Virus record (IMG/VR): IMGVR_UViG_2563366978_000001 | Length of the DNA: 47,048 bases | Source: a virus | Lineage: Duplodnaviria > Heunggongvirae > Uroviricota > Caudoviricetes | Reading direction: 5' to 3' (one strand) | Made by a program: the position numbers and the translations under genes | Notes under the pieces: model-generated | What the model was told of the DNA's origin: nothing | The model's database searches: none | The model's input: only the letters and a program-made list of their open reading frames with translations | Shown here: positions 2,222 to 47,048 of the stretch, in pieces | Numbering within the stretch: the stretch's first letter is position 1 | How the letters are laid out: every line of letters starts with the position of its first letter

Positions 2222-3004
2222 CTATTTATTGGTGATTTCTGCTGGCTTTAGCTGCGCGGATAACTGCTCAAGTTTTTGAACTGCCAGTTCAAAATGCGCG
2301 GGTAACGCCTTTTCCAGATCAGAGTTAATATCGGTGATGGGTAAATCACCACACGACATACTCCGCCTACCCCCACGAACAACATCACGCAACAACTCTC
2401 GTTCATACGTGCGCATGTTCCCCAATGCCGACTCAGCAGCCGTCAAAATCCGGCGCAGTTCTGCCGTAATTGCTGGCAAATCATCAACCGTTATGGGGTT
2501 CGGGGATGGATTACGACACGCCCGACGCAAAGCTAACCATACACCGCTAATCCAGGCATTTCGGTACTGAAAACTTTGTGCTATATCGTTAATCAGCCCT
2601 CGCAGATACTCTTTCTGCCTCCAGTTCAACGGCTCCGCTGCTCGCATTGGCTCAGGCTCGATGTAAACGTACTCTCCATTTTTGCGAATAGAGGGCAAGA
2701 CTTCGTTCGTTACCCATTTGCGAAACCGCCAAGCTGTTGTGCCTTGCTTCACCGCGTCACGGCAGCGGAGGATCAGGGTGTATAGACCTGACTCTGAAAT
2801 AATATTTAGCTTTTGCTCTCCGCCAGGGGTGTAACTTAAAGTTACACCCTTTTCATCCTCATCCAGAGACATTAGCGCCTTCCGGGAATTAACGAGTCTT
2901 AAAGCATCACATACATCCTTAGCCACAAACCACGGCTCACCGTTAATCATCACTACACGAACCTGATGCTCTTCCTGAAAGGAAAAGACTGCTAACGCGC
3001 TCAT
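2222..3004 (-). CDS. Phage antirepressor-like protein (BRO-N type N-terminal domain), 260 aa
   Basis: N-terminus FSFQEEHQVRVVMINGEPWFVAKDVCDALRL resembles the BRO-N/antirepressor fold; last gene of a coupled operon. Confidence 0.7.
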   Translation of the reverse strand: MSALAVFSFQEEHQVRVVMINGEPWFVAKDVCDALRLVNSRKALMSLDEDEKGVTLSYTPGGEQKLNIISESGLYTLILRCRDAVKQGTTAWRFRKWVTNEVLPSIRKNGEYVYIEPEPMRAAEPLNWRQKEYLRGLINDIAQSFQYRNAWISGVWLALRRACRNPSPNPITVDDLPAITAELRRILTAAESALGNMRTYERELLRDVVRGGRRSMSCGDLPITDINSDLEKALPAHFELAVQKLEQLSAQLKPAEITNK

Positions 3005-3234
3005 TCAGCCTCCTTATCGCGCAGCAAGTGCGACGAGAGAGACGCAGAATATCCCTGTGCTTCATGCGTTAACTCACACGCAATCTGCAGAAGTTTTCCA
3101 GCCTCTGAGAGGTAAATCGACGCCTCACAACTGGAGACTGTCCGATGGGCTGATGATACGAGCGCATAGACCTGAGCCAGACGTTCATCCAACGATTCCA
3201 GCAGGCCAACAGTGTTCATTTTTACCTGATTCAT
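3001..3234 (-). CDS. Hypothetical 77-aa protein, translationally coupled (ATGA overlap) to the antirepressor gene
   Basis: ORF stop overlaps the downstream start by ATGA at 3001-3004. Confidence 0.55.
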   Translation of the reverse strand: MNQVKMNTVGLLESLDERLAQVYALVSSAHRTVSSCEASIYLSEAGKLLQIACELTHEAQGYSASLSSHLLRDKEAE

Positions 3235-3395
3235 GCAGCCACCTCGCGCACCGGAATACGGGCAGACAATACCAGGACAAACCGGCTGGCGAACTGGCGA
3301 CGAGCTTCCCGTTCAGATGACGCGATAGTGGAAAGATGATGAATGTGGGACTTTTTGTCTGTGCGAACGACTGCCGCAAATTTGAATTTGAACAT
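3231..3395 (-). CDS. Small 54-aa ORF (MFKFKFAAVVRTDKK...), first gene of the antirepressor operon; icd-like position
   Basis: Hand-translated; not in the ORF track (below 60 aa); GGAG RBS 9 nt upstream; ATGA overlap with the next gene at 3231-3234. Confidence 0.45.
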   Translation of the reverse strand: MFKFKFAAVVRTDKKSHIHHLSTIASSEREARRQFASRFVLVLSARIPVREVAA

Positions 3396-3404
3396 GGTAT
3401 GCAC

Positions 3405-3540
3405 TCCGTTTTATTGGTCGTGCTACCACCAGAGTTGCGAATCTCTTTATTGGTGGTAGCCCAGGCGGGGTTCGCAATACCGGTAAACGAAGAAACCGGC
3501 CCGACCGAAGTCAGCCCCACCTGAGCCACCATAATTCGGA
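3405..3540 (-). ncRNA. Candidate C4-type antisense regulatory RNA / structured leader upstream of the antirepressor operon
   Basis: GC-rich inverted repeats (GCTACCACC...GGTGGTAGC) immediately 5' of the first small ORF; by analogy with P1/N15 c4-icd-ant organisation; no homology check possible. Confidence 0.25.
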
Positions 3541-3694
3541 TATGCGCAGGTCTATACACACAAAAAAACACGCTGGCGCGTGTTGTGCGCTTCGTTTTGC
3601 CAGGATTGCGAAGTCCCGACTGCGGGATTTACCGCAGCGAGGTGACTTTACCTCCAAAACGACGCACACGTCAATAATTTGCAAAGACATTTTA

Positions 3695-3727
3695 CCCCGT
3701 GACCAGTCACGGGGACAGGTGTTTTTA
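3695..3727 (+). terminator. Hairpin CCCCGTGACCAGTCACGGGG followed by GTTTTTAT; intrinsic terminator, possibly bidirectional
   Basis: 8-9 bp GC-rich stem, T-tract on plus strand, A-rich on the other side; lies between the lipoprotein gene end and the antirepressor operon. Confidence 0.5.
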
Positions 3728-3775
3728 TAGTTTGCTTGAACAAACGATCAGAACATGAACAATGTTATTGTTCCG

Positions 3776-4588
3776 TTATAAGAAAGCCTCACGCGAACGG
3801 AACACCCACTCTAGCTGTACTGGATAAATTTCTCCCGTTTTAATATTTATTAGGCGCGCGGCTAATAACTCACCCATAAAAACCTGAGTTTTATGGCTCA
3901 TATCTGACGGGTTAAAAATAGTAGGTGATGTTATATCAATATGATTACTGCTTAACCCATTTATCTTTGCTAAATATTCAATTCTAAGGTCTTTTACATT
4001 AACATCTTTTGGTATTTGTCCTTTTATATCAATATCTGCCCATATTGTTTCAGGGTTCCCTTCATTTATTTGTGTACTACCAAAGATAATTTCGGCACCT
4101 AAAGTATTTAACACTTCTACATCAGCAGATATTCCAAAAGCATTAGCACCAACATAGCTTCCATGCTTTGTTATTTCAGAGGAATCGACATGAAAACCAT
4201 ACCATCCAGACATATCTCGAGATGTTATCACGCTATCACTACCGCTATTCTCAACAAAATCACGGTTAAGATATGTTCCTGAGTATGTGATACTTCTAGG
4301 GATAGACAAACCTTGAGATGTTAAAACGTTGTTGTATGGCGCGTATGTTAATGAGTGAACGACATATCCACGCCATGAACCATCATCTATCTTTGATGCA
4401 ATAATTCTATTAAATTCCTTACCTGTGAGTATTTTGCTGCTAAAATCACCAACAGAGTTGATAGGTACTCTTTTTTCTTTTTCGAATTTATACTCAACGT
4501 CCGTTGATGCCTTATTATCATATTGATAAGTGCATCCAGATAATAACAAGATAGAGAGTAATAAAGCTGTTGTTTTTTTGTTACGCAT
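3776..4588 (-). CDS. Lipoprotein, 270 aa (signal peptide with lipobox LLSGC)
   Basis: N-terminal MRNKKTTALLLSILLLSGC; AT-rich codon usage unlike the flanking backbone. Confidence 0.75.
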   Translation of the reverse strand: MRNKKTTALLLSILLLSGCTYQYDNKASTDVEYKFEKEKRVPINSVGDFSSKILTGKEFNRIIASKIDDGSWRGYVVHSLTYAPYNNVLTSQGLSIPRSITYSGTYLNRDFVENSGSDSVITSRDMSGWYGFHVDSSEITKHGSYVGANAFGISADVEVLNTLGAEIIFGSTQINEGNPETIWADIDIKGQIPKDVNVKDLRIEYLAKINGLSSNHIDITSPTIFNPSDMSHKTQVFMGELLAARLINIKTGEIYPVQLEWVFRSREAFL

Positions 4589-4677
4589 AATATTAACTTA
4601 ACCTATTTGATTAATAATATGTTATTCCATTAAATAAAATATGCCGAGAACGGTTTAACTTGAACAGTCATCACTAT

Positions 4678-5085
4678 TCAATCAACTTTTTTAGCATCAG
4701 CCATACGCTTCAACCAGTAATCAACAATCGGCTGCTCATCCACAGAATGTTTACCTGGTATAACTCGCCAGCTATCTTGCGAAAATCTGCCGTACTTACG
4801 CGGGAATAGGCCTTTCTTTATCTCCCGCCATGTACTAGGAAAACCATCCACAAAAGTACCAATTAACAGGAGAGGGACAAAAATCAGAGCTACAAACCAT
4901 CGTGCAAGAAAGTGTTCAACAACAACATTTTCACCGTTGTAGTAATACGCATACGCATCCAATATGCGAATTTTCCTTACCTTAAAAATAGCCTTATGCT
5001 GAGAACGACTTAACTTGATACGAATGTATCCCTTATCCAAAGGGGATTCGTATTTGTATGATTGAACAGCCATTTTTAACCCCAC
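4678..5085 (-). CDS. Hypothetical membrane protein, 135 aa (one central hydrophobic segment)
   Basis: ORF with hydrophobic stretch WFVALIFVPLLLIGTFV; AT-rich. Confidence 0.55.
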   Translation of the reverse strand: MGLKMAVQSYKYESPLDKGYIRIKLSRSQHKAIFKVRKIRILDAYAYYYNGENVVVEHFLARWFVALIFVPLLLIGTFVDGFPSTWREIKKGLFPRKYGRFSQDSWRVIPGKHSVDEQPIVDYWLKRMADAKKVD

Positions 5086-5402
5086 TCACCATCAGCAAAC
5101 AAAGCGTTATACTCTGACAATGGTAGACGGTTGCCCTCGATGTAGAGATTCAGTTCATACTTCGTCTCCGGGTTTTCCTTGTCGGCTCGTTCCCAACGCT
5201 CAGCAGCCTTACGCGCCAATAATTCCACTGCTTTCAGATAATCCTCCGTACGGAACCAGCCAAAGATAAGGCCACGATCTGTTACAGCCCAGGCGACCTT
5301 TTTTTCTTCCTCCTGGATAGCCCTAATGCGTCGTTCGCATTCATCCCGGCAGAACTGCAGCTGACGGTAATCAAGTTTGTCCAAAAATGCAGTAGTAGAC
5401 AT
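5076..5402 (-). CDS. Hypothetical protein, 108 aa
   Basis: ORF tightly packed with its neighbours in the same AT-rich operon. Confidence 0.55.
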   Translation of the reverse strand: MSTTAFLDKLDYRQLQFCRDECERRIRAIQEEEKKVAWAVTDRGLIFGWFRTEDYLKAVELLARKAAERWERADKENPETKYELNLYIEGNRLPLSEYNALFADGEWG

Positions 5403-5406
5403 ATTT

Positions 5407-5598
5407 TTACTCCCCGTTCACCGAAAATTCACGATAGAAACGTTTCCACATACGATAAGTCTGCGCAAATTGTTCACCACGAAACATCGCCTTCCTGGCC
5501 TTCATGTTTTCCTTGTGAGACTTTCGGTCTATGAACCAAAACCATTGATGGAACACACAAAGCAAGAGACACAAAGATAATATCCAATCATTACCCAT
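5407..5598 (-). CDS. Small hypothetical membrane protein, about 63 aa (MGNDWILSLCLLLCVF...)
   Basis: In-frame ATG at 5596-5598 just beyond the repA stop; the longer track ORF would overlap repA. Confidence 0.4.
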   Translation of the reverse strand: MGNDWILSLCLLLCVFHQWFWFIDRKSHKENMKARKAMFRGEQFAQTYRMWKRFYREFSVNGE

Positions 5599-8500
5599 AG
5601 AAAGCGCCCTGCTCTTCGTAGCTGCATGAGCTATTCCCCGTAATGTATTCACGTAACCGCCGCAGCTCATTGCTGGAAAGGTGATCCATGAACTCTGTGA
5701 GGTACAGGGATGCAAACGTCATAGCTATGCTGGCTGATGACCATGATGACATAGTGGCCAACTCCTCACTGGAAAGCGCACTCATCGCCCAGGACTCAGG
5801 TACAGCCACTGGCAACACGGCCAAAGCCTCAGAAATTACTGAATGAGGGGCGTTTTGAACCTGCTCGTTTGTGGATCGCGTTTTATCATCCATATATATA
5901 TTGAGATCCAAATCGCGATCCATTTCGATGGCTGTCTTCTCGGCTTTACGCGTTTTTAGGGTTAGGCCATCTTTCTGACGCTGAACAAGAATATCCAGCA
6001 TAAATGCCGCTGATTCAGGCTCAACAAAACGCAAGGTTGGACGCTTATCGCCGTCTCTGCCGCGACGTTTACCTGTTTTAAGGCCAAGAGAGTCGCAAAT
6101 GTTTTTAAACAACGCTTCCGGCACTTTAGGCTTCCCTTTTGGCGTCATAAAACCACCAATGTGCAGAACGTTATTCAACAGGTCACGGCGTTCGGCTGTC
6201 ATGAGGTTATCTCGAGCGAATTTGAGACGCTCCTGAGTCGCCTCGCCGGTCATAGTCTCAGGGTTGATACCGCAGTCGATAAAGTACTGCCGGAGAGTTG
6301 CTGATTTAAGCGCATAGAAACCGCGCGCCCCGACTTCAACAGTAGGAGTAGCTTTTACCTTGTGATCGATTATTCCAGGGAATTTAGTTTTAAAGACATC
6401 ATCAGCCTGCTCGCGAGTCATCGCGGTCACTACAAAATATTGCCACTGTCCCGCCTGACGGTATGTGTAGGTAAAATTGATGGCTGCTTCTTCCCGGTCG
6501 TAACGACGAGCTGTTACCTCATCTAAAAGCATTGTTTCATAGCGGCGAACTTTGTCTCGAGCACCATCGAAATAGAATTTCAGCGTGCCTTCTTCAACCG
6601 GTAGTTTCAGTTCGTTTTCAATATCCCAGCGGACAAGTTTTGCCTGTTCTTCAAGCGTCAGCGCGCGTTTTTTTAGCAGTTCTTCACGCTCTGATTCTTG
6701 TGGTGTTTCTGTATTGAGGTGCAGATCCAGTGTCTGTTCCCACACAATATCCCGCGCTTCTTTACGCAGATCTTTACCGATATCATTCGCAGCATAATCG
6801 GTGGCCAGCGGTGATACCTTATAACCGTCGCTGTGCATGATGCAGATCATGTTGCTGGCGTAGTCGTTACGCGCAGTCGCTTCAATTGCGGCTGCTTTAA
6901 TTTTCATCCTGGTAAAGTCGGTATTGGCCACCCCCATTGATATACGGTCGCCATCGAAAACGACATCCGTAAGTTCACCGTTCATACCTGCGGTAGCAAG
7001 CAATGCCTGGGCGAATGCTCGTTCTATTTTTTGCGGGTCAGTTTCACGTTTTGCACGAGCTTTATCAAAGCCGATAATAAATTCTTTTGCTGTACGGTCG
7101 CGGCGTAGCATTTGCACTGCATCACTGGGTACAACTTCACCACAGAACATGCCGAAATGACGGTCAAAATGTTTTTGCTCAATCGACACGCCGGATGAAA
7201 TAGACGGGCTATAAATCAGGCCGTCGTATTTTTTGACCATCTTTTTCGGTTGATTGGTAAATGCTTCAACTTCTGGCTCTGGTTTGTTTTTCTGGTTTAC
7301 ACACAGAAATTTCTTACCAGGAAAATGCATTCTCAGGGTGGCTGTCACATCTTCTGCAAAGGTGGAGCTGTCGGTGGCCAACATGATTTTTTCGCCATCC
7401 GATACAGCTTTCACCACCTCGGTCATGATGCGATCTTTTTCTGTATAAAAAACCCGGATTGGCTCACCTGTTTCGCGGTTGCGAACATCAACAGGTAATT
7501 CAATTACGTGGATCTGCAGCCATGCCGGTAAACCTAGTTCTTCACGGCGTTTCATAGCCAGTTCAGCCAGGTCAACCAGCAGATCGTTCGCATCAGCATC
7601 CACCATGATTGGGTGTTGTTCCGTTCTGGCCAGCGCGTCAATTAGCGTATTGAATACAGCCACCGGGTTTTCCATAGCCCGACCGGAAAGAACGGCACGT
7701 AGCCCTTGTGTGGCCTCGTCAAAGCCAAAATAGTCGTGCTGGCGCATCAACGGTTGCCAGCAGTTTTTAACAATCGAGTTTATGCAGATGGTCAGTTTAC
7801 TGGCGTATGGAGCCATTTCCTGATAGCCAGGGTCCTGATAGTGCAGGATATCGGTTTTTACACCTTTTCCTTCTGTCATCATTTCCCACAGGCCACCAAT
7901 AAGGGAAACACGGTGAGCAACAGAGATACCACGTTCTGAGCTATGCATTAAAGGTCGTAACAATCCAGTAGATTTGCCGGAACCCATACCAGCACGAACG
8001 ATGACTATCCCCTGTAGTGATTGCACATACTTCAGGACGTCATCGGTCATTACCGAAGTTTCAAGACGCTTATAGGTGATATGTTGAGGACGTTTATTGG
8101 GATCAGTTATGCGTTCGCTGAATGAGCGCGGAGCCTGGGCAATACGGCACTTTTTATTCAGGCGACGGGCAATGTGGTCTTTTACCGTAGCGCGATAGAT
8201 ATTTTCCAGCCCCATTTCACGCAGAACGATGCAGAACATGTTAAATAAGTCTGACGGACTGTTAGGAACCGGACAGGTTAGCATGCCAATATCCACCGCT
8301 CTCAGCAGCTCTTTGGCAAAAGTACGACGGTTATCCCGCTTAATTGTCTTCAGGCGGTTGAGCGTCAGAGATAGCAAATCAGTGCCGGTTTTCAGGCGGT
8401 TTGCAGTTGCAAACAGTTGACGTGCTGTTTCACGAAGTCCACGCAGTTTGTGCAGGTCGTTGAAGTCACTGCACTCCATTTGCGGATCGTCTTCAAAAGT

Positions 8501-9586
8501 TGGATAGACGCAGCGGACATCGTTGAATTTCGATAAGATTTCATAGCCAGTCCGCAGGCCGGTATTCCCTTTTCCTTCTGTGGCTGATTTCCGGTCATTA
8601 TCCAGTGCGCAGGTGATTTTTGCCGCCGGGTACATGTTTACCAGTTGTTCCACAACATGAACCATGTTATTAGCGGATACAGCGACAACCACAGCGTCAA
8701 AGCGTTTATCTTTTTTCGTGGCAAGCCAGATGGATGCACCAGTAGCAAAACCTTCTGTAACAGCGATGTTTTGCGCCCCTTTTAGCTCACCGATAACAAA
8801 GCAGGCACCGACGAAATCGCCGCTGGTTACGGCGCTGGTCTGGTATTTTCCACCTTGTTTGTCGATTCGCTGCCAACCCACAATACGACCATCGTAACGA
8901 CCGTCCAGGTGAGCCAGAGGGATAGCCATATACGTGGTTGGCCCCCTGCTCCATTTTGCGCTGTCGTGACTGGTCACGCGACGCACATCACACGAATTAA
9001 AAACGTCACGAATACCTTTTTTAATCGCATATGGCCATGAGCCGTCTTCTGCAGGAGCATGTTCCCACGCGCTGTGGAATGCCAGCCATCCCAGCAAACG
9101 TTCATGGTCCATTTGGTTGTTTTTCAGGTCATTAATTCGTTTTTGTTCTTCACGGCGACGACGTGCTTCGGCCTGACGTTCTATTCTTGCCCGTTCTTCT
9201 TCCGGTTGTGCGACCACGGTCGCATTATTCCGTTGTTGCTCACGGCGATATTCAGAAAACAGGAAGGAGAAACCGCTCCATGAGCCAGCATCGCTGCCTT
9301 TATGGACGAAGTTAATGAACGGGTAATCAATCCCTTTGCTGTGTTCCAGCCGGGAGTAAATTTCTACGCGTCCTTTGAGGCTCTTTTCGAGAGCTTCTGG
9401 AGATGTTTTATTGTATGAAGAGTAACGCTCAACACCCCCGCGAGGGTTGAGTTGGATGTTGTCGGAACAGGCAGACCAGTTGATACCAGCCATCTGTGCC
9501 AGCTCGGTTAGTTCATCCCGTGCTGCTTCAATTAGCGAGAACGGATCGCTGCCAAAGCGATCCGCATAGAAATCGTTTAATGTCAT
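5591..9586 (-). CDS. repA: Replication protein RepA (primase-helicase), 1331 aa
   Basis: Single ORF of N15 RepA size (about 1324 aa from memory) in the N15 position between immunity region and telN side. Confidence 0.9.
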   Translation of the reverse strand: MTLNDFYADRFGSDPFSLIEAARDELTELAQMAGINWSACSDNIQLNPRGGVERYSSYNKTSPEALEKSLKGRVEIYSRLEHSKGIDYPFINFVHKGSDAGSWSGFSFLFSEYRREQQRNNATVVAQPEEERARIERQAEARRRREEQKRINDLKNNQMDHERLLGWLAFHSAWEHAPAEDGSWPYAIKKGIRDVFNSCDVRRVTSHDSAKWSRGPTTYMAIPLAHLDGRYDGRIVGWQRIDKQGGKYQTSAVTSGDFVGACFVIGELKGAQNIAVTEGFATGASIWLATKKDKRFDAVVVAVSANNMVHVVEQLVNMYPAAKITCALDNDRKSATEGKGNTGLRTGYEILSKFNDVRCVYPTFEDDPQMECSDFNDLHKLRGLRETARQLFATANRLKTGTDLLSLTLNRLKTIKRDNRRTFAKELLRAVDIGMLTCPVPNSPSDLFNMFCIVLREMGLENIYRATVKDHIARRLNKKCRIAQAPRSFSERITDPNKRPQHITYKRLETSVMTDDVLKYVQSLQGIVIVRAGMGSGKSTGLLRPLMHSSERGISVAHRVSLIGGLWEMMTEGKGVKTDILHYQDPGYQEMAPYASKLTICINSIVKNCWQPLMRQHDYFGFDEATQGLRAVLSGRAMENPVAVFNTLIDALARTEQHPIMVDADANDLLVDLAELAMKRREELGLPAWLQIHVIELPVDVRNRETGEPIRVFYTEKDRIMTEVVKAVSDGEKIMLATDSSTFAEDVTATLRMHFPGKKFLCVNQKNKPEPEVEAFTNQPKKMVKKYDGLIYSPSISSGVSIEQKHFDRHFGMFCGEVVPSDAVQMLRRDRTAKEFIIGFDKARAKRETDPQKIERAFAQALLATAGMNGELTDVVFDGDRISMGVANTDFTRMKIKAAAIEATARNDYASNMICIMHSDGYKVSPLATDYAANDIGKDLRKEARDIVWEQTLDLHLNTETPQESEREELLKKRALTLEEQAKLVRWDIENELKLPVEEGTLKFYFDGARDKVRRYETMLLDEVTARRYDREEAAINFTYTYRQAGQWQYFVVTAMTREQADDVFKTKFPGIIDHKVKATPTVEVGARGFYALKSATLRQYFIDCGINPETMTGEATQERLKFARDNLMTAERRDLLNNVLHIGGFMTPKGKPKVPEALFKNICDSLGLKTGKRRGRDGDKRPTLRFVEPESAAFMLDILVQRQKDGLTLKTRKAEKTAIEMDRDLDLNIYMDDKTRSTNEQVQNAPHSVISEALAVLPVAVPESWAMSALSSEELATMSSWSSASIAMTFASLYLTEFMDHLSSNELRRLREYITGNSSCSYEEQGAFYG
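5873..5922. other. Candidate replication origin inside the 3' part of repA: 8-bp inverted repeat GGATCGCG/CGCGATCC around an AT-rich core with three GATC sites
   Basis: Direct reading; N15-type origins are reported within the 3' part of repA (from memory). Confidence 0.3.
9209..9224. repeat. sopC-like palindrome TGCGACCACGGTCGCA (inside repA); putative centromere site
   Basis: 16-bp core of the palindrome family repeated five times in the window. Confidence 0.55.
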
Positions 9587-36224: not shown

Positions 36225-39200
36225 ATGGGTAAAGGCAGCAGTAAGGGGCATACCCCGCGCGAAGCGAAGGACAACCTGAAATCATCCCAGATGCTGAGCG
36301 TGATAGACGCCATCAGTGAAGGGCCGGTTGAAGGTCCGGTGGACGGATTAAAAAGTGTGCTGCTGAACAGTACGCCAGTGCTGGACAGTGAGGGGAATAC
36401 CAATATCTCCGGTGTCACGGTGGTGTTCCGGGCAGGTGAGCAGGAGCAGACACCGCCGGAGGGATTTGAATCCTCCGGCTCCGAGACGGTGCTGGGTACG
36501 GAAGTGAAGTACGACACGCCGATTACCCGGACCATCACGTCTGCAAACATCGACCGTCTGCGCTTTACCTTCGGTGTGCAGGCACTGGTGGAAACCACCT
36601 CAAAGGGGGACCGGAATCTGTCGGAAGTTCGCCTGCTGGTTCAGATACAGCGTAATGGTGGCTGGGTGACGGAAAAAGACATCACCATTAAGGGCAAAAC
36701 CACCTCACAGTATCTGGCCTCGGTGGTGGTGGATAACCTGCCGCCGCGCCCGTTTAATATCCGGATGCGCAGAATGACGCCGGACAGCACCACAGACCAG
36801 CTGCAGAACAAAACGCTCTGGTCGTCATACACCGAAATCATCGATGTGAAACAGTGCTACCCGAACACGGCACTGGTCGGCGTGCAGGTGGACTCGGAGC
36901 AGTTCGGCAGCCAGCAGGTGAGCCGTAATTATCATCTTCGCGGGCGCATTCTGCAGGTGCCGTCGAACTATAACCCGCAGACGCGGCAATACAGCGGTAT
37001 CTGGGACGGAACGTTTAAGCCAGCATACAGCAACAACATGGCCTGGTGTCTGTGGGATATGCTGACCCATCCGCGCTACGGCATGGGGAAACGTCTTGGT
37101 GCGGCAGATGTGGATAAATGGGCGCTGTATGTCATCGGCCAGTATTGCGACCAGTCGGTGCCGGATGGCTCTGGCGGCACGGAGCCGCGCATCACCTGTA
37201 ATGCGTACCTGGCCACACAGCGCAAGGCGTGGGATGTGCTCAGTGATTTCTGCTCGGCGATGCGCTGTATGCCGGTATGGAACGGGCAGACGCTGACATT
37301 CGTGCAGGACCGACCGTCGGATAAGGTGTGGACCTATAACCGCAGTAATGTGGTGATGCCGGATGATGGCGCGCCGTTCCGCTACAGCTTCAGCGCCCTG
37401 AAGGACCGCCATAATGCCGTTGAGGTGAACTGGATTGACCCGAACAACGGCTGGGAGACGGCGACAGAGCTTGTGGAGGACACGCAGGCCATTGCCCGTT
37501 ACGGTCGTAACGTCACGAAGATGGATGCCTTTGGCTGTACCAGCCGGGGGCAGGCACACCGCGCCGGGCTGTGGCTGATTAAAACGGAACTGCTGGAGAC
37601 GCAGACCGTGGATTTCAGCGTGGGTGCTGAAGGGCTTCGCCATGTACCGGGCGATGTCATTGAAATCTGCGATGATGACTATGCCGGTATCAGCACCGGT
37701 GGTCGCGTGCTGGCGGTGAACAGCCAGACCCGGACGCTGACGCTCGACCGTGAAATCACGCTGCCATCCTCCGGTACCACGCTGATAAGCCTGGTTGACG
37801 GAAGTGGTAATCCGGTCAGCGTGGAGGTTCAGTCCGTCACCGACGGACTTAAGGTGAAAGTGAATCGGGTTCCTGACGGCGTTGCAGAATACAGTGTGTG
37901 GGGGCTGAAGTTGCCGACGTTGCGTCAGCGCCTGTTCCGCTGTGTGAGTATCCGTGAGAACGATGACGGCACGTATGCCATCACTGCCGTGCAGCATGTA
38001 CCGGAAAAAGAAGCCATCGTGGATAACGGGGCGCACTTTGACGGCGACCAGAGCGGCACGGTGAATGGTGTCACGCCGCCAGCGGTGCAGCACCTGACCG
38101 CCGAAGTCACCGCAGACAGCGGGGAATACCAGGTGCTGGCGCGCTGGGATACGCCGAAGGTGGTGAAGGGCGTGAGCTTTATGCTTCGCCTGACCGTGGC
38201 AGCGGATGACGGCAGTGAGCGGCTGGTCAGCACGGCCCGGACGACGGAAACCACATACCGCTTCAGGCAGCTGGCTCTGGGAAATTACAGTCTGACAGTC
38301 CGGGCGGTAAATGCGTGGGGGCAGCAGGGCGATCCGGCGTCGGTATCGTTCCGGATTGCCGCACCGGCAGCACCATCGCGGATTGAGCTGACGCCGGGCT
38401 ATTTTCAGATAACCGCCACGCCGCATCTTGCGGTTTATGATCCGACTGTACAGTTTGAGTTCTGGTTCTCGGAAAATCGGATTGCGGATATCAGGCAGGT
38501 TGAAACCAGCGCGCGTTATCTTGGCACGGCGCTGTACTGGATAGCCGCCAGTATCAATATCAAACCGGGCCATGATTATTATTTTTACGTTCGCAGTGTG
38601 AACACCGTCGGCAAATCGACATTCGTGGAGGCTGTCGGCCGGGCGAGCGATGATGCGGAAGGTTACCTGGATTTTTTCAAAGGCCAGATAACCGAATCCC
38701 ATCTCGGCAAGGAGCTGCTGGAAAAAGTCGAGCTGACGGAGGATAACGCCAGCAAACTGGAGGAGTTCTCGAAAGAGTGGAAAGACGCCAACGATAAATG
38801 GAATGCCATGTGGGGTGTCAAAATTGAGCAGACCGAAGACGGCAAACATTATGTCGCGGGGCTTGGCCTCAGCATGGAGGATACAGAGGAAGGCAAACTG
38901 AGCCAGTTCCTGGTTGCCGCTAACCGTATCGCGTTTATTGACCCGGCAAACGGGAATGAAACGCCGATGTTTGTGGCGCAGGGCAACCAGATATTCATGA
39001 ACGAAGTGTTCCTGAAGTATCTGACGGCTCCCACCATTACCAGTGGCGGCAATCCTCCGGTATTTTCCCTGACACCGGACGGGCGGCTGACGGCGAAAAA
39101 TGCCGATATCAGCGGTAACGTGAATGCGAACTCCGGGACGCTCAATAATGTCACGATTAACGAGAACTGTCGGGTTCTGGGAAAACTGTCCGCGAACCAG

Positions 39201-39620
39201 ATTGAAGGCGATCTCGTTAAAACAGTGGGCAAAGCTTTCCCCCGGGACTCCCGTGCACCGGAGCGGTGGCCATCAGGGACTATTACCGTCAGGGTTTATG
39301 ACGATCAGTCGTTTGACCGGCAAATTGTTATTCCAGCGGTGGCTTTCTGCGGTGCCAGACATGAGCGGGAGAATAGCGATACTTATTCGTCATGCCGCCT
39401 GATAGTGAAGAAAAACGGGGCTGAAATTTATAACCGAACGGCTCTGGATAATACTCTGATTTACACGGGTGTTATTGATATGCCTGCAGGCAGTGGTGTA
39501 ATGACACTGGAGTTTTCTGTATCAGCATGGTGGGTAAATGGTTGGTATCCCACAGCAAGTATCAGCGATTTGCTGGTTGTTGTGATGAAGAAAGCCACTG
39601 CAGGCATCAGTATCAGCTGA
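36225..39620 (+). CDS. J: Central tail fibre / host specificity protein J
   Basis: 1131 aa, lambda gpJ-like. Confidence 0.95.
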
Positions 39621-39639
39621 ATTTTATAACCCCAATACG

Positions 39640-39663
39640 GGCGTCAGAAATGACGCCTTTTTT
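39640..39663 (+). terminator. Intrinsic terminator after J (GGCGTCA-GAAA-TGACGCC then T6)
   Basis: Stem-loop plus T-tract. Confidence 0.65.
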
Positions 39664-39687
39664 ATTGCAGAAAAGCGAGAGGTAATT

Positions 39688-40287
39688 ATGCGTAAATTAT
39701 GTGCTGTTATTCTGTCCGCAGTAGTCTGGCTGGTTGCCGCTGGTACGCCAGCGAGCGCAGCAGAGCATCAGTCCACACTAAGCGCCGGGTATCTTCAGAC
39801 CCATACTGATATGCCAGGCAGTGATGACCTGAAGGGCATTAACGTGAAATACCGTTATGAATTTACGGACACGCTGGGGCTGGTGACGTCATTCAGTTAT
39901 GCCAATGCCAAAGATGAGCAAAAAACGCATTACAGCGATACCCGCTGGCATGAAGATTCCGTGCGTAACCGCTGGTTCAGCATGATGGCGGGGCCATCTG
40001 TACGCGTGAATGAATGGTTCAGTGCTTATGCGATGGCGGGTATGGCTTACAGCCGTGTGTCGACCTTCTCCGGGGATTATCTCCGCGTAACTGACAACAA
40101 GGGGAAAACGCACGATGTGCTGACCGGAAGTGATGACGGTCGCCACAGCAACACGTCTCTGGCGTGGGGGGCTGGCGTGCAGTTTAACCCGACCGAATCC
40201 GTGGCCATTGACCTTGCTTATGAAGGTTCCGGCAGTGGTGACTGGCGCACTGACGGTTTCATCGTGGGTGTCGGTTATAAATTCTGA
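39688..40287 (+). CDS. lom: Outer membrane protein Lom (Ail/Lom family)
   Basis: Signal peptide; C-terminus AYEGSGSGDWRTDGFIVGVGYKF matches lambda Lom. Confidence 0.9.
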   Translation: MRKLCAVILSAVVWLVAAGTPASAAEHQSTLSAGYLQTHTDMPGSDDLKGINVKYRYEFTDTLGLVTSFSYANAKDEQKTHYSDTRWHEDSVRNRWFSMMAGPSVRVNEWFSAYAMAGMAYSRVSTFSGDYLRVTDNKGKTHDVLTGSDDGRHSNTSLAWGAGVQFNPTESVAIDLAYEGSGSGDWRTDGFIVGVGYKF

Positions 40288-40313
40288 TTAGCCAGGTAAC
40301 ACAGTGTTATGAC

Positions 40314-40341
40314 AGCCCGCCGGTTCAGGCGGGCTTTTTTG
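40314..40341 (+). terminator. Intrinsic terminator after lom (AGCCCGCC-GGTTCA-GGCGGGCT then T6)
   Basis: Stem-loop plus T-tract. Confidence 0.65.
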
Positions 40342-40351
40342 TGGAGTGGAT

Positions 40352-42727
40352 ATGGCAGCAGTAAAAATCTCAGGTGTGCTGAAAGATGGTGCGGGAAAAC
40401 CAATACAGAACTGCACTATTCAACTGAAGGCAAAGCGTAACAGCACCACGGTACTGGTGAACACGGTGGCCTCTGAAAATCCTGATGAAGCCGGGCGTTA
40501 CAGTATGGACGTTGAGTATGGTCAGTACAGCGTCATCCTGTGGATTGAGGGTTCTCAGCCATCACATGTTGGGACCATTACCGTCTATGAAGGTTCCTGT
40601 CCGGGGACGCTGAATGATTTTCTCGGTGCCATGACGGAAGATGATGTCATGCCGGAGGCATTGCGCCGTTTTCAGGAAATGGTGGAAGAAGCGGCACGCA
40701 ACGCCGAAGCCGCCTCTCAGAGCGCAGCGGCGGCAAAGAAATCCGAAACTGCAGCGGCATCATCGAAGAACGCGGCGAAAACCTCAGAAACGAATGCAGC
40801 TAACAGCGCACAGGCGGCAGCGACCTCACAGACTGCATCGGCAAACTCCGCGACAGCAGCCAAAAAATCAGAAACCAACGCGAAAAACAGCGAGACAGCC
40901 GCAAAGACGAGCGAAACCAACGCAAAGTCCAGCCAGACGGCAGCGAAAACCAGCGAAACGAATGCCAAAGCCAGTGAAACTGCGGCGAAAAGCAGTCAGG
41001 ATGCAGCAGCCGAAAGCGAGAGCGCGGCAGCTGGTTCTGCGACTTCAGCTGCTGGATCAGCAACTGCTGCGGCTAACAGTCAGAAAGCAGCGAAGACGAG
41101 TGAAACTAACGCAAAGTCCAGCCAGACGGCAGCGAAGACCAGCGAAACGAATGCCAAAGCCAGCGAAACTGCGGCGAAAAGCAGTCAGGATGCAGCAGCC
41201 GAAAGCGAGAGTGCTGCAGCTGGTTCTGCAAGCGCGGCTGCTGCTTCTGCCACTGCATCAGCTAACAGTCAAAAAGCAGCAAAAACCAGTGAAACCAACG
41301 CAAAGGTGAGCGAAACAGCGGCTGCGAACTCAGCGAAAGCATCGGCAGCAAGCCAGACGGCAGCTAAAGCAAGCGAAGATGCAGCCAGAGAGTACGCAAG
41401 CCAGGCTGCGGAGCCGTATAAATATGTCTTACAGCCGCTGCCTGATGTGTGGATACCATTTAACGATTCGCTGGATATGATTACGGGCTTTTCGCCGTCA
41501 TATAAAAAGATTGTTATTGGTGATGATGAAATAACGATGCCTGGCGACAAGGTTGTTAAGTTTAAACGCGCATCGAAAGCAACCTATATTAATAAATCTG
41601 GTGTGCTGACAGAGGCTGCCATTGACGAGCCACGGTTTGAACGTGATGGCCTGCTTATTGAGGGGCAAAGAACGAACTACATGCTCAATTCGGAAAGCCC
41701 TGCCAGTTGGGGGCGATCGTCAAATATGGATGTTCCCGAAACCGGGACGGATAGTTTTGGTTTTACCTATGGAAAGTTCGTCTGTAACGATTCTCTGATT
41801 GGGCAAACCTCAGCCATTAATATGGCATCAATTGCTGCAACAAAGTCAGTTGATGTCTCAGGCGATAATAAACACGTGACAACCTCATGTCGTTTTAAAA
41901 CAGAACTGCAGGTAAGGTTGCGTATCCGGTTTGATAAATATGACGGTAGCGCAACAACTTTTCTTGGTGATGCGTATATTGATACACAAACGCTTGAAAT
42001 TAATATGACAGGCGGTGCTGCCTCAAGGATTACAGCGAGAGTCAGAAAGGACGAAGCTACCGGATGGATTTTTGCAGAGGCAACAATTCAGGCAATTGAT
42101 GGGGAGTTAAAAATAGGCTCTCAGATACAGTATTCTCCTAAGCAGAGCGGGGCAACCGTATCTGGTGACTATATTTATCTGGCCACCCCACAAGTAGAAG
42201 ATGGGCCTTGTGTATCATCTTTTATTATATCAGGAGCGACGGCGGCGACCCGCGCAAGCGATATAGTTACAGTTCCAATTAAGAATAATCTTTATAAGAT
42301 TCCTTTTACGGTTCTTTGTGAGGTACATAAGAACTGGTATAAAACGCCAAATGCAGCGCCACGTGTTTTTGATACCGGCGGTCATCAAACCGGAGCGGCT
42401 ATTATTCTTGGCTTCGGTCGTTCAACAGATTACGACGGATTTCCTTATTGCGATATTGGAGGAGCTAACAGACGGGTAAACGAAAACGCATCGCTTGAAA
42501 AAATGGTTATGGGGATGCGTGTAAAGTCAGAGCAGTCTACGTGCTCAGTAAGTAACGGGCATATATCCAGCGAAACAAAAACCACATGGTCCTGTATTCA
42601 GAACACCGCAATTATCCGTATTGGAGGCCAGACTACAGCCGGGTTACGTCATTTATTTGGTCATGTCAGGAATTTCAGAATATGGCACAAGGCATTGACT
42701 GATGCTCAGGTGGGGGAGTCAATCTAA
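40352..42727 (+). CDS. stf: Side tail fibre: lambda Stf-like N-terminus, repetitive Ala/Ser/Thr-rich shaft, different C-terminal receptor-binding domain (LamG-like motif NFRIWHKALTDAQV)
   Basis: N-terminal about 120 aa match lambda Stf; internal 189-bp tandem repeat; C-terminus unlike lambda. Confidence 0.8.
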   Translation: MAAVKISGVLKDGAGKPIQNCTIQLKAKRNSTTVLVNTVASENPDEAGRYSMDVEYGQYSVILWIEGSQPSHVGTITVYEGSCPGTLNDFLGAMTEDDVMPEALRRFQEMVEEAARNAEAASQSAAAAKKSETAAASSKNAAKTSETNAANSAQAAATSQTASANSATAAKKSETNAKNSETAAKTSETNAKSSQTAAKTSETNAKASETAAKSSQDAAAESESAAAGSATSAAGSATAAANSQKAAKTSETNAKSSQTAAKTSETNAKASETAAKSSQDAAAESESAAAGSASAAAASATASANSQKAAKTSETNAKVSETAAANSAKASAASQTAAKASEDAAREYASQAAEPYKYVLQPLPDVWIPFNDSLDMITGFSPSYKKIVIGDDEITMPGDKVVKFKRASKATYINKSGVLTEAAIDEPRFERDGLLIEGQRTNYMLNSESPASWGRSSNMDVPETGTDSFGFTYGKFVCNDSLIGQTSAINMASIAATKSVDVSGDNKHVTTSCRFKTELQVRLRIRFDKYDGSATTFLGDAYIDTQTLEINMTGGAASRITARVRKDEATGWIFAEATIQAIDGELKIGSQIQYSPKQSGATVSGDYIYLATPQVEDGPCVSSFIISGATAATRASDIVTVPIKNNLYKIPFTVLCEVHKNWYKTPNAAPRVFDTGGHQTGAAIILGFGRSTDYDGFPYCDIGGANRRVNENASLEKMVMGMRVKSEQSTCSVSNGHISSETKTTWSCIQNTAIIRIGGQTTAGLRHLFGHVRNFRIWHKALTDAQVGESI

Positions 42728-43008
42728 TGAAAGATTTAACACTCAAATTTGCCGACAGGGCCGACTTTTCGGCCTTTATGGATAGCACTGGCTATTATGA
42801 TGACGAGTCGATGCAGGATGATATTCTTATTGACGTGATAGGTAACGTGTACAAAGAAACCGGAGAACTGACTGAAGATGGCGAACCGGTATGTGTTAAG
42901 GAAGACGGATATTTTGTAAACGTGCGCATCATTAATGATTCGCAAATATCGTCATTATTCGATGAATACGTGGTTGCTGTTGAGCATCAACTTCGTGGCT
43001 GGATGTGA
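42727..43008 (+). CDS. Hypothetical acidic protein, 93 aa, between the two fibre genes
   Basis: ORF coupled to the stf stop. Confidence 0.45.
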   Translation: MKDLTLKFADRADFSAFMDSTGYYDDESMQDDILIDVIGNVYKETGELTEDGEPVCVKEDGYFVNVRIINDSQISSLFDEYVVAVEHQLRGWM

Positions 43009-43017
43009 GGAAGAATA

Positions 43018-44058
43018 ATGGCTACATCGACAGTAATTCCTGATGACATCAAAACGCTAAAATCCGATGTTAGCAAATTAAAAAACGATCAAGGAAGCTA
43101 CGTAACAAAATCATATGTAGACAGCAAAAATGAAACCGTTAATGACTGGTCTGCTGCATGGTATCAGCAGGTACTGCCAACTAGCGGAGCTATATTTGGG
43201 CGAAAACTTCGCTCAACTCACAGGACGGCAGGTGTTGAGGATGCGTATTGCGAACTATACCTTAAAAAATGGATAGACAGCCCAGGGAACGCAATGGCGC
43301 GCCTTAACCTGAACGATAACGGTGAAAATATTTGCTGGGATTTTACCAACCTTTACGGCGGAACAATGATCTTCCCTGGTACTTCAGGCTATCTGAAAAT
43401 GGGGAACTGTCTCATGTCGTATAGTGTGCGGGGAAGTAACGCGCTTATTAAGTTTGATTACACCGACACATTACAGATCAAATATGCTAATCATGGGTCA
43501 ACCATGACATTAACCACACAGGGATCCGCTCACGCTGGCGTAACAACTAGACTATGGGGTAATTCTAGCCGTCCGGTTGTTTATGAAGTTGGCGTAGATG
43601 AGGCTCTGTATATGTTCTACGCACAGAAAACTACCAGCAATACCTACGAATTAACGGTTAACGGCGCGTGCAATGCAAGTGCATTTAATCAAGGCTCTGA
43701 CCGGGATCTGAAAGACAATATTCAGGTGATCGATAATGCAACCGACCGCATTCGTAAAATGAACGGCTATACATACACGCTTAAAGAAAACGGTATGCCT
43801 TACGCTGGTGTTATTGCACAAGAAACCCTGGAAGCCATCCCCGAAGCCGTAGGGTCTATGATGAAATATCCAGACGGCGGGAGTGGATTAGATGGAGAAG
43901 AAGGTGAACGGTATTACACTGTAGATTATTCTGGTGTTACTGGCTTGCTTGTTCAGGTAGCCAGAGAGTCAGACGACAGAATAACAGCACTGGAAGAAGA
44001 AAACGCAGAATTAAAACAAAGATTATCTGCAATTGAGGCGGCGCTTGCGTCTAAATAA
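43018..44058 (+). CDS. Tail fibre/spike-like protein with C-terminal intramolecular chaperone (S74-type) domain
   Basis: C-terminal ...SDRDLKDNIQVIDNATDRIRKMNGYTY... and terminal coiled coil typical of self-cleaving fibre chaperone domains. Confidence 0.6.
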   Translation: MATSTVIPDDIKTLKSDVSKLKNDQGSYVTKSYVDSKNETVNDWSAAWYQQVLPTSGAIFGRKLRSTHRTAGVEDAYCELYLKKWIDSPGNAMARLNLNDNGENICWDFTNLYGGTMIFPGTSGYLKMGNCLMSYSVRGSNALIKFDYTDTLQIKYANHGSTMTLTTQGSAHAGVTTRLWGNSSRPVVYEVGVDEALYMFYAQKTTSNTYELTVNGACNASAFNQGSDRDLKDNIQVIDNATDRIRKMNGYTYTLKENGMPYAGVIAQETLEAIPEAVGSMMKYPDGGSGLDGEEGERYYTVDYSGVTGLLVQVARESDDRITALEEENAELKQRLSAIEAALASK

Positions 44059-44085
44059 TATTAAGGGGCCGAGCGCCCCGTTTTA

Positions 44086-44388
44086 TTGGGTGGGATGAAA
44101 ATGGATATAACACCTTTCCTTCATGCACTTTGTGCTGTGGCTGCGCAGGTACTGGTTGGTCTTTTTACCGGAAACTGGGCTTACGGGGCGATAGCCGGTT
44201 GTACATTCTTCATTGCGCGGGAACACACCCAGGCAGAATATCGCTGGATTGAAATGTTCGGGCATGGCAAGCGTATGAATATGCCGTGGTGGGGCGGTTT
44301 TGATCTACGCGCGTGGGATGTAGCAAGCCTGATGGATTTTGCTGTGCCGGTGGTGGCGTGTTTACTTGTATTTATATTTTTTGAATAA
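44086..44388 (+). CDS. Small membrane protein, about 100 aa (possible superinfection-exclusion type cargo)
   Basis: Two hydrophobic segments; AT-rich; function is a guess. Confidence 0.4.
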   Translation: MGGMKMDITPFLHALCAVAAQVLVGLFTGNWAYGAIAGCTFFIAREHTQAEYRWIEMFGHGKRMNMPWWGGFDLRAWDVASLMDFAVPVVACLLVFIFFE

Positions 44389-44393
44389 AATTA

Positions 44394-44428
44394 AGACCCC
44401 ATCTATAACTGATGGGGTCTATTCTATT
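44394..44428. terminator. Hairpin AGACCCCATC-TATAACT-GATGGGGTCT between convergent genes; likely bidirectional terminator
   Basis: 10-bp stem flanked by A/T-rich sequence on both sides. Confidence 0.6.
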
Positions 44429-44436
44429 TTCTGCTA

Positions 44437-45426
44437 TTAGTTATTTTTTACATCGGAAGAATTTCCAAACGCCTCCTCAAGAATAGATTCAATTTTACTC
44501 ATTAGGTGCGATGGTATTTTTCTGTTATCTAATTTTAATGTTGTGAAATTTTTCCCATATTTCGCCACAACACCGTCTCCATATTTCTTTTCCCTTTTCT
44601 CTCCATGTGAATTGTTTTTCTCAACAATAATGAAATCATGAAGAGCCTGTATTATTCTTTGCGCATCTAAACTTTCACCTGATTTTTTCATCCTCAGCAA
44701 CTGAGATGCAGCATTTTTCATGGCTGCTTCCTGTCCCTGATATGCTTTAAAAAGAGCGTCTCCTGCTCTGGCTGATAACTCACCAGGATGGTTAAATATT
44801 GCCAATATATCTTTAGGTAAACCGGCTGTATTAATACATCGGCTGATAATATTTCTATCCACGCCTTCGGCTTCAGCTAAAGATTTTACGTTACCGTCAA
44901 ATTCATGGAGCCTTCGCAGGTATCTTTTCCCCCTTTCATAGGCGCTGATAGGTCTATAGTCGTTGCCTATCTGCGATAACCATTGCATTTGTTCATCATC
45001 TAAATCGCCAATAAGAACACGATAATCGCATCCAGTTATAATGGCTGCTTTACGTCTTCGAGAACCATCAGCTACTTCAACAATACCTGACACTTTTCTT
45101 GCGAAAGCCGGATTTTGTTGCCCAGAAGTTAGAAAAGATGGAATTAAATCAGCTAGAGAAGATTCATTTAATAAATCTTGATCACGCTCATTACCTAGCC
45201 ATACCATTGTTGCCATTTCTACTTTATCTGCGGGGATCGTTTCTAACTTAAAGTTAACATTACGTCCGCATACTGGCAAAGTTATGCTATTACCGGTTAA
45301 TGAACTCAGTTGACGTTTTAAATCACCAACCATAGGTGATACCGGCTGATGTTCAGGTGCATGATGATTATTACTCATAATGCGATTAATATCCGGAGCA
45401 TTTTTTAGAAGAGAGCGTTGTTTCAT
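44437..45426 (-). CDS. sopB: Partition protein SopB (ParB family)
   Basis: 329 aa; conserved block ITLPVCGR...SGNERDQ...DGSRRRKAA...GNDYRP as in F SopB. Confidence 0.95.
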   Translation of the reverse strand: MKQRSLLKNAPDINRIMSNNHHAPEHQPVSPMVGDLKRQLSSLTGNSITLPVCGRNVNFKLETIPADKVEMATMVWLGNERDQDLLNESSLADLIPSFLTSGQQNPAFARKVSGIVEVADGSRRRKAAIITGCDYRVLIGDLDDEQMQWLSQIGNDYRPISAYERGKRYLRRLHEFDGNVKSLAEAEGVDRNIISRCINTAGLPKDILAIFNHPGELSARAGDALFKAYQGQEAAMKNAASQLLRMKKSGESLDAQRIIQALHDFIIVEKNNSHGEKREKKYGDGVVAKYGKNFTTLKLDNRKIPSHLMSKIESILEEAFGNSSDVKNN

Positions 45427-46592: not shown

Positions 46593-46613
46593 ACTGTCAT
46601 CTCCAGCTTATAA

Positions 46614-46691
46614 CTTTGCTTAATAATTATTGCTTTGCATATTTCTAGCAAATTGACATAGAAAAAGCAAAGTAAAACAAAAAAGGCAAAG
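46614..46691. promoter_or_regulatory. sopAB promoter/operator: CTTTGC hexamers at 46614-46619 and 46633-46638, inverted GCAAAG at 46667-46672 and 46686-46691
   Basis: Direct reading; F SopA autoregulates through CTTTGC repeats (from memory). Confidence 0.5.
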
Positions 46692-46882
46692 ACGAAGATT
46701 TGAGCAAAATCATCTTTTGTTTTATCCCTTAAATGCAAAAAAAAACAACGACAGGCTCATAACAAATTGATAATAAAGGATTTTTTAAAAGAAAGGAAAT
46801 CGTATAAAACTAGTGAAACATGATGAAAATCATCAATGAGATACGTTTCCTCTATTTATTCTCCTAATCCTCACCAACAAAA

Positions 46883-47022
46883 GAACACAATCAAAGATCG
46901 TAAAACAACAATAATAATTCACACAAAATAAAGAACACAAATACAGAAAACAACAACACAATAAAAACAAGAGAACACAAGCTATAAATATTACACCAAT
47001 AGAGAACACTAATCAAGAACAT
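46883..47022. repeat. Right telomere-proximal repeat array: AGAACAC at 46883, 46933, 46973, 47003, and AGAACAT at 47016
   Basis: Direct reading; spacing shortens toward the end (50, 40, 30, 13 bp). Confidence 0.65.
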
Positions 47023-47048
47023 ATCAGCACATAATTCCCCATTATACG
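47022..47048. other. Half of the telomere resolution palindrome (telO/telRL-like): TATCAGCACATAATTCCCCATTATACG
   Basis: Matches the N15 telRL half-site TATCAGCACACAATTGCCCATTATACGC as I remember it with 2 mismatches; the window ends one base short of the predicted symmetry centre. Confidence 0.8.

Follow-up and report, generated by a model that had tools for sequence, protein, structure and literature searches.

Telomere phages of the N15 type, or linear plasmid-prophages, possess a variable slot, flanked by the antirepressor operon on one side and by the genes trailing repA on the other. In the Klebsiella telomere phage NAR688 the region between RepA and the protelomerase contains the TelA/ImmA (telocin) cassette, which was detected in the proteome of the lysogen and benefits the host (PMC12042878; Sci Adv 2025). 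The same proteome also included a protein annotated as gp35 by the authors (PMC12042878), presumably the product of the gp35 homolog located beside the NAR688 cargo. In N15, the position of the slot is taken by gp34 and gp33. Here we describe the corresponding region of the IMG/VR virus record IMGVR_UViG_2563366978_000001, a stretch of 47,048 nucleotides that we call the window. The window is an N15-like telomere phage-plasmid of Escherichia, and its slot holds a single gene, coding for a predicted lipoprotein of 270 amino acids.

Several lipoproteins and envelope proteins encoded by mobile elements are relevant for comparison. TraT is the surface-exclusion and serum-resistance lipoprotein of F-like plasmids. 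The receptor-masking lipoproteins of phages, such as Cor (N15, phi80), Llp (T5) and Rtp45 (Rtp), are small, about 6-8 kDa (PMC12685063). Phage morons, a concept of Hendrix and Juhala, are exemplified by bor and lom of lambda (PMC3594210).

A preliminary description of the window, made from its sequence, regarded the lipoprotein gene and three neighbouring genes as one AT-rich, horizontally acquired envelope module. Its observation is confirmed in part, and its interpretation is partly supported. The variable slot is known and the genes beside it are ordinary backbone genes; the single-gene lipoprotein cassette in the slot is uncharacterised and belongs to an unstudied family. We propose that the region consists of the tail of the repA transcription unit followed by a single-gene cargo cassette and that the lipoprotein may well act, as we are somewhat inclined to believe, in exclusion or protection at the outer membrane in the carrier state.

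Exchange of a single-gene cassette behind repA

Four open reading frames (ORFs) of the minus strand, coding for p63, p108, p131 and the lipoprotein, are present between repA and the antirepressor operon (Table 1). Their strand, coordinates and position directly downstream of repA were verified, and their products are indeed the lipoprotein, two proteins with a hydrophobic stretch (p131 and p63) and a soluble protein of 108 amino acids. The genes are genuine, as diverged relatives have conserved p131, p108 and p63, and as the ratio of nonsynonymous to synonymous substitutions (dN/dS) is 0.17 for the lipoprotein gene (window versus an E. fergusonii copy) and 0.25 for p131. The notion of a joint four-gene module is not supported, as its components assort independently.

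DNA nearly identical to the window is confined to plasmids of ~46 kb, often linear, of Escherichia coli, E. albertii, E. fergusonii and Shigella, and to phage PhiR46_1. Comparison of positions 3000-6000 with close relatives by blastn showed that similarity breaks off sharply at 3753/3754 and 4662/4663. On either side of the cassette, identity is 98-99.6% with PhiR46_1 and pEC21Z151-46K, the nearest relatives, and 83-99% with the other relatives compared. In these two, in pCAVP367-48 and in others, the segment of 909 bp is replaced by one of 322 bp, which encodes a Cys-containing protein of 95 amino acids with a Sec signal peptide (L003 2677-2964 in pEC21Z151-46K; PV340565 3086-3373 in PhiR46_1), assigned to phrog_26765 of unknown function. 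The PhiR46_1 record (PV340565) labels this protein as "Spackle exclusion protein". The label could not be verified; the protein has no PDB sequence match at E <= 10 save an unrelated enzyme, and matches only PHROGs of unknown function. The lipoprotein allele is found in three of the 17 matching complete E. coli genomes and in 6-7 of 29 PLSDB plasmids. A separate case is the E. albertii record NZ_CP126913, where 100% identity to the lipoprotein gene ends within the signal-peptide codons (at ~4559, residues 18-270 only); this copy may have lost its 5' end or have been rearranged.

The clearly lower guanine-plus-cytosine (GC) content ascribed to all four genes is a property of the cassette, with 0.343 overall, which is within the lowest 0.35% of 909-bp windows, and 0.26 at third codon positions (GC3). 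To a lesser degree it extends to p131 and p63 (0.40-0.42), but p108 (0.49) does not differ in this way from the whole window (0.497). GC content of 0.30-0.39 is also encountered in the telN and sopAB regions (positions 1-1400 and 44250-47048), and therefore AT-richness is not peculiar to the cassette in this genome. Horizontal acquisition, claimed for the whole group, is supported by the sequence comparison for the lipoprotein gene only, with its sharp breakpoints and the other insert in relatives, but not for p63, p108 and p131.

The three latter genes belong to the backbone, at the tail of the transcription unit headed by repA, and were not acquired together with the lipoprotein gene. The ATG of p63 overlaps the stop codon of repA (ATGGGTAA), p108 starts 4 nt past the p63 stop, and the ATG of p131 lies 2 nt past the p108 stop. 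For p131 we used the ATG annotated in relatives; the version of 135 amino acids given by the ORF lister begins at an upstream GTG. The preliminary description found no protein that could be named among the four products, but p108 is 63.5% identical to N15 gp35 over 107 residues (E = 1e-50), 65% identical to its NAR688 homolog, and matches phrog_10878 (function unknown) with E = 2e-52. Judged by full-length homology and by position downstream of repA, it belongs to the N15 gp35 family. p63 is 41% identical to the equivalent ORF of NAR688 and is annotated in PhiR46_1; it has no match in PHROG or Pfam. p131 contains one central hydrophobic segment, predicted to be transmembrane (Kyte-Doolittle 19-residue mean 2.27), and its homolog in the Yersinia telomere phage P840, ORF32, is the final gene after repA. 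In the plasmid NZ_LR883007, which is otherwise intact, the insertion sequence ISKpn26 (IS5-like) occupies the place of p131 (L006 3205-4185); as the plasmid is still maintained, p131 is dispensable for maintenance. No BLAST similarity was detected between p63, p131 and the lipoprotein on one side and N15 gp36, gp34 and gp33 on the other.

These results bear on the possibility that the four genes make up a single envelope module, acquired horizontally and acting as a unit in superinfection exclusion. The genes do share one strand and are closely spaced with no terminator in between, and a signal peptide or hydrophobic segment is present in three of their products; the somewhat low GC content of p131 and p63 would also agree with a common origin. 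Such a module is nevertheless very improbable, because p131, p108 and p63 are present with either cassette allele, thus also with that for the 95-amino-acid protein, because p108 is a gp35 with the GC content of the backbone, and because the p131 homolog trails repA in the Yersinia phage without such a cassette and p131 is disrupted in a plasmid that persists. The lipoprotein, in turn, is found together with gp33, in other prophages and alone on tiny plasmids, as described below.

Comparison with other telomere phages leads to the same division of the region. The four ORFs fill the same interval downstream of repA as genes 33-36 of N15, with p108 as the homolog of gp35. In NAR688, repA is followed in turn by the homologs of p63 and gp35, a Colicin_im-like protein of 181 amino acids, a colicin-pore-domain protein of 377 amino acids, the ant operon and telN. 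The NAR688 cargo therefore lies in the same slot, between the genes trailing repA and the ant operon/telN, and cargo in this slot is swapped among related phages. The two cargoes themselves differ: the NAR688 pair, a colicin-pore toxin and an inner-membrane immunity protein, matches Pfam Colicin and Colicin_im, whereas the window carries one lipoprotein gene and none of its ORFs matches either family.

A lipoprotein family on phages and small plasmids

The N-terminus of the window lipoprotein has a positively charged n-region and a hydrophobic h-region, followed by the lipobox LSGC with Cys at position 19 and Thr at +2. The lipobox Cys is aligned in 17 of 18 family members. Asp at +2 occurs in none of the family, the relatives having Thr, Ser, Val, Ala, Gly or Ile in this position. 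By its dN/dS value, the gene is under purifying selection.

The family is small. It comprises five clusters with 53-99% identity among 5.8 billion proteins and 21 representatives among 1.84 billion proteins; the exact sequence of the window lipoprotein is present on 277 contigs. Full-length members have 240-300 amino acids and share the motifs Y-G-NAFG, IEYLAKL, SPT-D-P and LLAARLIN-KTG. Almost no members were added by two further profile searches of the 5.8-billion-protein set, and no further relatives were found by scans of genome contigs or, with distant members, of viral contigs. A scan of metagenomes gave matches of ~25% identity in mixed, uninformative contexts. The sole PHROG match is phrog_13753 (function unknown), reached by the window lipoprotein with E = 0.0013 and by 15 of 18 family members.

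The AlphaFold2 model of the lipoprotein, built from 18 sequences, is confident (predicted local distance difference test, pLDDT, 84.4; predicted template modelling score, pTM, 0.77) and mostly beta; an earlier model from 5 sequences (pLDDT 49) was discarded. The fold search with the confident model yielded no fold relative, including no PDB fold match, and the PDB sequence search with the family profile yielded matches at the level of the signal peptide only. Homology to T4 Spackle (gp61.3) was considered for the lipoprotein and rejected, as no PDB sequence or fold match to it was obtained.

The homologs are located in diverse genetic contexts. On an N15-type backbone (IMG/VR 2791355284_000001), a 59%-identical homolog is present in the same slot, following a gp33 homolog instead of p131. 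In the lambdoid contig L013, a 53%-identical homolog lies between the tail genes K and I/J and is preceded by a Lom-like gene, an Arc-like gene and two Ant genes. In the metagenomic contig L025 the gene of the homolog comes after those for the tape-measure protein and for another lipoprotein. A distant member in prophages of Xanthomonas hortorum begins 18 nt after an S24 CI-type repressor gene, itself divergent from a cro-like gene. Several homologs are thus placed directly after genes expressed in the carrier state. Finally, homologs with 60-63% identity occur in Salmonella, E. coli, Klebsiella and Enterobacter on plasmids or contigs of ~2.4-4.4 kb, where only mobilisation genes and a Rep-like winged-helix gene adjoin them. 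The complete plasmid pRHEcCUB-4 (2,724 bp, ColE1-type ColRNAI) carries only rop and a family member of 254 amino acids. We found no paper on the lipoprotein as cargo of small plasmids.

Because the homologs are present in other prophages as well as alone on tiny plasmids, the lipoprotein is self-sufficient and moves between mobile elements. This distribution shows that it acts on its own. It also bears on the idea that the lipoprotein serves the lytic cycle of the phage, either as a spanin-like lysis component or as a virion or assembly factor. Outer-membrane lipoproteins include o-spanins, and the homologs in L013 and L025 do lie among tail genes. A lytic role is hardly credible for a protein that is encoded on plasmids of 2.7-4.4 kb without phage genes and that is absent from most of the close, otherwise intact relatives of the window phage; in addition, its gene is far from the late genes and the protein has no C-terminal membrane segment.

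The second lipoprotein of L025, a protein of 138 amino acids (phrog_2320; 3153-3569), is encoded directly upstream of the homolog. It was examined as a possible relative and rejected, as the similarity found by hhalign is confined to the signal peptide.

Possible protection of the carrier cell

According to our proposal, read-through from the repA unit would supply the lipoprotein in the carrier state; Sec would export it and, after lipidation at Cys19, the Lol pathway would deliver it to the outer membrane. There, its beta-rich domain of ~250 residues might bind or shield a component of the envelope and in this way guard the carrier cell against infecting phages, mobile DNA from elsewhere or protein toxins. 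Such an exclusion or lysogenic-conversion function would benefit whichever mobile element carries the gene. A role in lysogenic conversion or superinfection exclusion, attributed to the whole region in the preliminary description, appears plausible for the lipoprotein, because the slot is shared with the telocin cassette expressed in lysogens and because a distant homolog lies 18 nt behind a CI-type repressor gene.

The layout of the locus suggests how the gene may be expressed. A scan of the spacer between p131 and the lipoprotein gene found no terminator and no consensus sigma-70 promoter on the minus strand (the best match has 8 of 12 positions). Downstream, a strong hairpin (3695-3714) lies within the conserved flank; the surrounding region of 101 nt has a minimum free energy of -28.3 kcal/mol (z = -3.7), but the T-tract (U-tract in the RNA) of the hairpin is poor. 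This hairpin is a candidate terminator that may insulate the antirepressor promoter. In the simplest reading, the lipoprotein gene would be co-transcribed with repA and then insulated from the ant operon.

Several points weigh against a protective role. Expression of the lipoprotein in the lysogen is suggested by this layout and by the Klebsiella precedent, and its outer-membrane location is predicted from the +2 rule. Neither the lipoprotein nor the 18 family members have a Pfam match at E <= 0.1 or any match in NCBIfam or PADLOC. The four window proteins and the 95-amino-acid allele have no match at E <= 0.1 in PADLOC-DB 2.0, and the lipoprotein and three distant members have none by tblastn among 50,697 deposited phage genomes. 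With ~28 kDa, the lipoprotein is far larger than Cor, Llp and Rtp45. Its presence in N15-like plasmids also does not go along with the tail-fibre module or with the C-terminus of J: the lipoprotein-positive CP117561, LT906558 and CP088738 share only 32-37% of the J-Cterm/lom/fibre region of the window, whereas 96% of this region is shared by CP088430, which has the 95-amino-acid allele. Neither homology nor a fold match nor co-variation with receptor-binding proteins thus points to a mechanism. Should the lipoprotein have no protective role, it would be an ordinary hypothetical cargo gene, and the practical result would be the corrected anatomy of the region, with one swapped gene in place of a four-gene module.

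The lipoprotein resembles Cor, Llp and Rtp45 in being phage-encoded and in having a standard lipobox and a predicted outer-membrane location. Moreover, its homologs in L013 and L025 are found among tail-tip genes, as are cor and llp. Unlike these proteins, the family also occurs on plasmids without phage genes. No homology to any of the three was detected. Alignment of the family with N15 Cor by hhalign covers residues 3-22 only, that is, the signal peptide; one distant member matches phrog_1119 (Cor) with E = 0.0095, but the window lipoprotein does not. J of L013 has only 30% identity with its counterpart in the window and lacks the shared C-terminus. A blocker of the phage's own receptor of the Cor/Llp type is therefore disfavoured by the lack of co-variation with fibres or J, by the divergent J of L013, by the alignment to Cor within the signal peptide only, and by size.

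TraT is of similar size, and like TraT the window protein is a lipoprotein carried by mobile elements, predicted to lie in the outer membrane and to act alone at the surface of the carrier; no sequence similarity between them is detectable (no Pfam match at E <= 0.1). This likeness also leads to a different explanation, in which the lipoprotein would serve host fitness or virulence in the manner of Bor, TraT and Lom, by conferring serum resistance, adhesion or envelope robustness, and would not be a barrier against phages and other mobile genetic elements. It would be in keeping with the approximate size of TraT, with the adjoining Lom/Ail-like gene in L013 and the lom gene of the window itself, with carriers among isolates from blood, urine and avian lesions, and with the lack of co-variation with receptor-binding proteins. 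We consider this explanation rather unlikely: homology to TraT, Bor or Iss is missing at the same Pfam threshold, carriers come from pigs, wild birds and wastewater as well, and the distant member resides in a prophage of plant-associated Xanthomonas. The cassette also has features of morons, namely atypical base composition, replacement in close relatives, an envelope protein as product and the presence of lom in the same genome. It may differ from them in that no clear promoter of its own was found for the lipoprotein gene, which may therefore rely on read-through from repA; its product is not a Bor or Lom homolog.

Protein toxins could be a more specific target. Colicin-related cargo is classically found on ColE1-type and small mobilisable plasmids, and on the plasmids of this type described here the lipoprotein gene is the only cargo. 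Together with the position in the slot that holds TelA/ImmA in NAR688 (PMC12042878), this would fit an orphan protection against bacteriocins (telocins, colicins) or contact-dependent toxins, achieved by shielding of an outer-membrane receptor or translocator. Colicin immunity and lysis proteins show no similarity to the lipoprotein, though, and no toxin gene is located nearby in the window. The known immunity proteins against pore-formers sit in the inner membrane (PMC12042878). We consider specialised protection of this kind improbable.

Returning to exclusion or protection at the outer membrane in general, we put forward, tentatively and with more doubt than confidence, that the lipoprotein founds a new family of stand-alone outer-membrane lipoproteins on mobile elements, with a new fold, which would exclude phage, or in a wider sense foreign DNA and toxins, through a conserved component of the envelope. 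If true, this would explain its presence in cargo slots of unrelated temperate phages as well as its retention as the lone accessory gene of "cryptic" plasmids of 2.7-4.4 kb in E. coli, Klebsiella, Enterobacter and Salmonella. A single-gene family for surface protection would then be common to phages and minimal plasmids, with bearing on host range in phage therapy and on the persistence of tiny cryptic plasmids in clinical Enterobacteriaceae. If the lipoprotein is protective, telomere phages would have, from repA to the antirepressor operon, a general exchangeable slot for genes of benefit to the host, filled with toxin/immunity pairs in Klebsiella and with a small periplasmic protein or a lipoprotein in Escherichia.

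Coordinates and neighbouring features

The features of the region are listed in Table 1.

Table 1. Positions of the cassette, the genes trailing repA and adjacent elements in the window
Feature	Position	Strand	GC content	Description
telN	149-2050	plus		
Antirepressor-side boundary	3449..3674	minus		promoter-like site, c4 a1/b1 targets, isrK-like RNA, C4 antisense RNA
Hairpin	3695..3714	minus		CCCCGUGA-CUGG-UCACGGGG, GC-rich; downstream of lipoprotein stop, upstream of antirepressor promoter
Exchanged cassette	3754..4662		0.343	909 bp; lipoprotein gene with 74 bp upstream and 22 bp downstream
Lipoprotein gene	3776-4588	minus		270 amino acids, MRNKKTTALLLSILLLSGC; predicted outer-membrane lipoprotein, mature part 252 residues, ~28 kDa
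Spacer between p131 and lipoprotein gene	4589..4677	minus	0.25	89 nt
p131	4678-5073	minus	0.40-0.41	131 amino acids from ATG; phrog_15458, function unknown
p108	5076-5402	minus	0.49	108 amino acids, soluble, no hydrophobic stretch; N15 gp35 homolog, phrog_10878
p63	5407-5598	minus	0.41-0.42 (GC3 0.50)	63 amino acids; N-terminal hydrophobic stretch, Kyte-Doolittle 1.86
repA	5591-9586	minus		1331 amino acids, N15 gp37-type primase/replication protein; heads transcription unit trailed by four ORFs
Whole window			0.497	47,048 nucleotides

At the boundary on the antirepressor side, the promoter-like site of the operon is located at 3674..3645 on the minus strand. Comparison with Rfam placed the C4 antisense RNA at 3449-3536 (82 bits) and an isrK-like RNA within 3449-3674 (53 bits); the c4 a1/b1 target sites score 24.8 bits, which is under the Rfam gathering score. 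These RNA elements are followed on the minus strand by icd (or an icd-like gene), an antB-like gene and a Bro-N ant gene. As the Rfam RNAs lie upstream of icd, antB-like and Bro-N ant genes, the operon is a P1 immI-type c4-icd-ant unit. A CB-like repressor gene is present further along the window, on the minus strand like repA.

The lipoprotein gene adjoins antirepressor genes in two unrelated backbones: in L013 (5495-8810) it comes after arc-ant-ant, and in the window (2222-4588) it is upstream of the c4-icd-ant promoter. This adjacency recalls P22, where sieA lies beside immI.

By tblastn, N15 Cor, the C-terminus of gp21, gp22, gp23 and gp25 have no homolog in the window. The tail-tip module (36225-44388, plus strand) is lambda-like and not N15-like, with J, Lom and two stf-type fibre genes. 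On phage PhiR46_1 no paper was found in the literature. In records of 56-77 kb (IMGVR_UViG_3300045988_113976, NZ_CP014491, NZ_LT906558 and CP088738) the locus is present twice, in inverted orientation, which looks like a palindromic assembly across a hairpin telomere and not like a true duplication.

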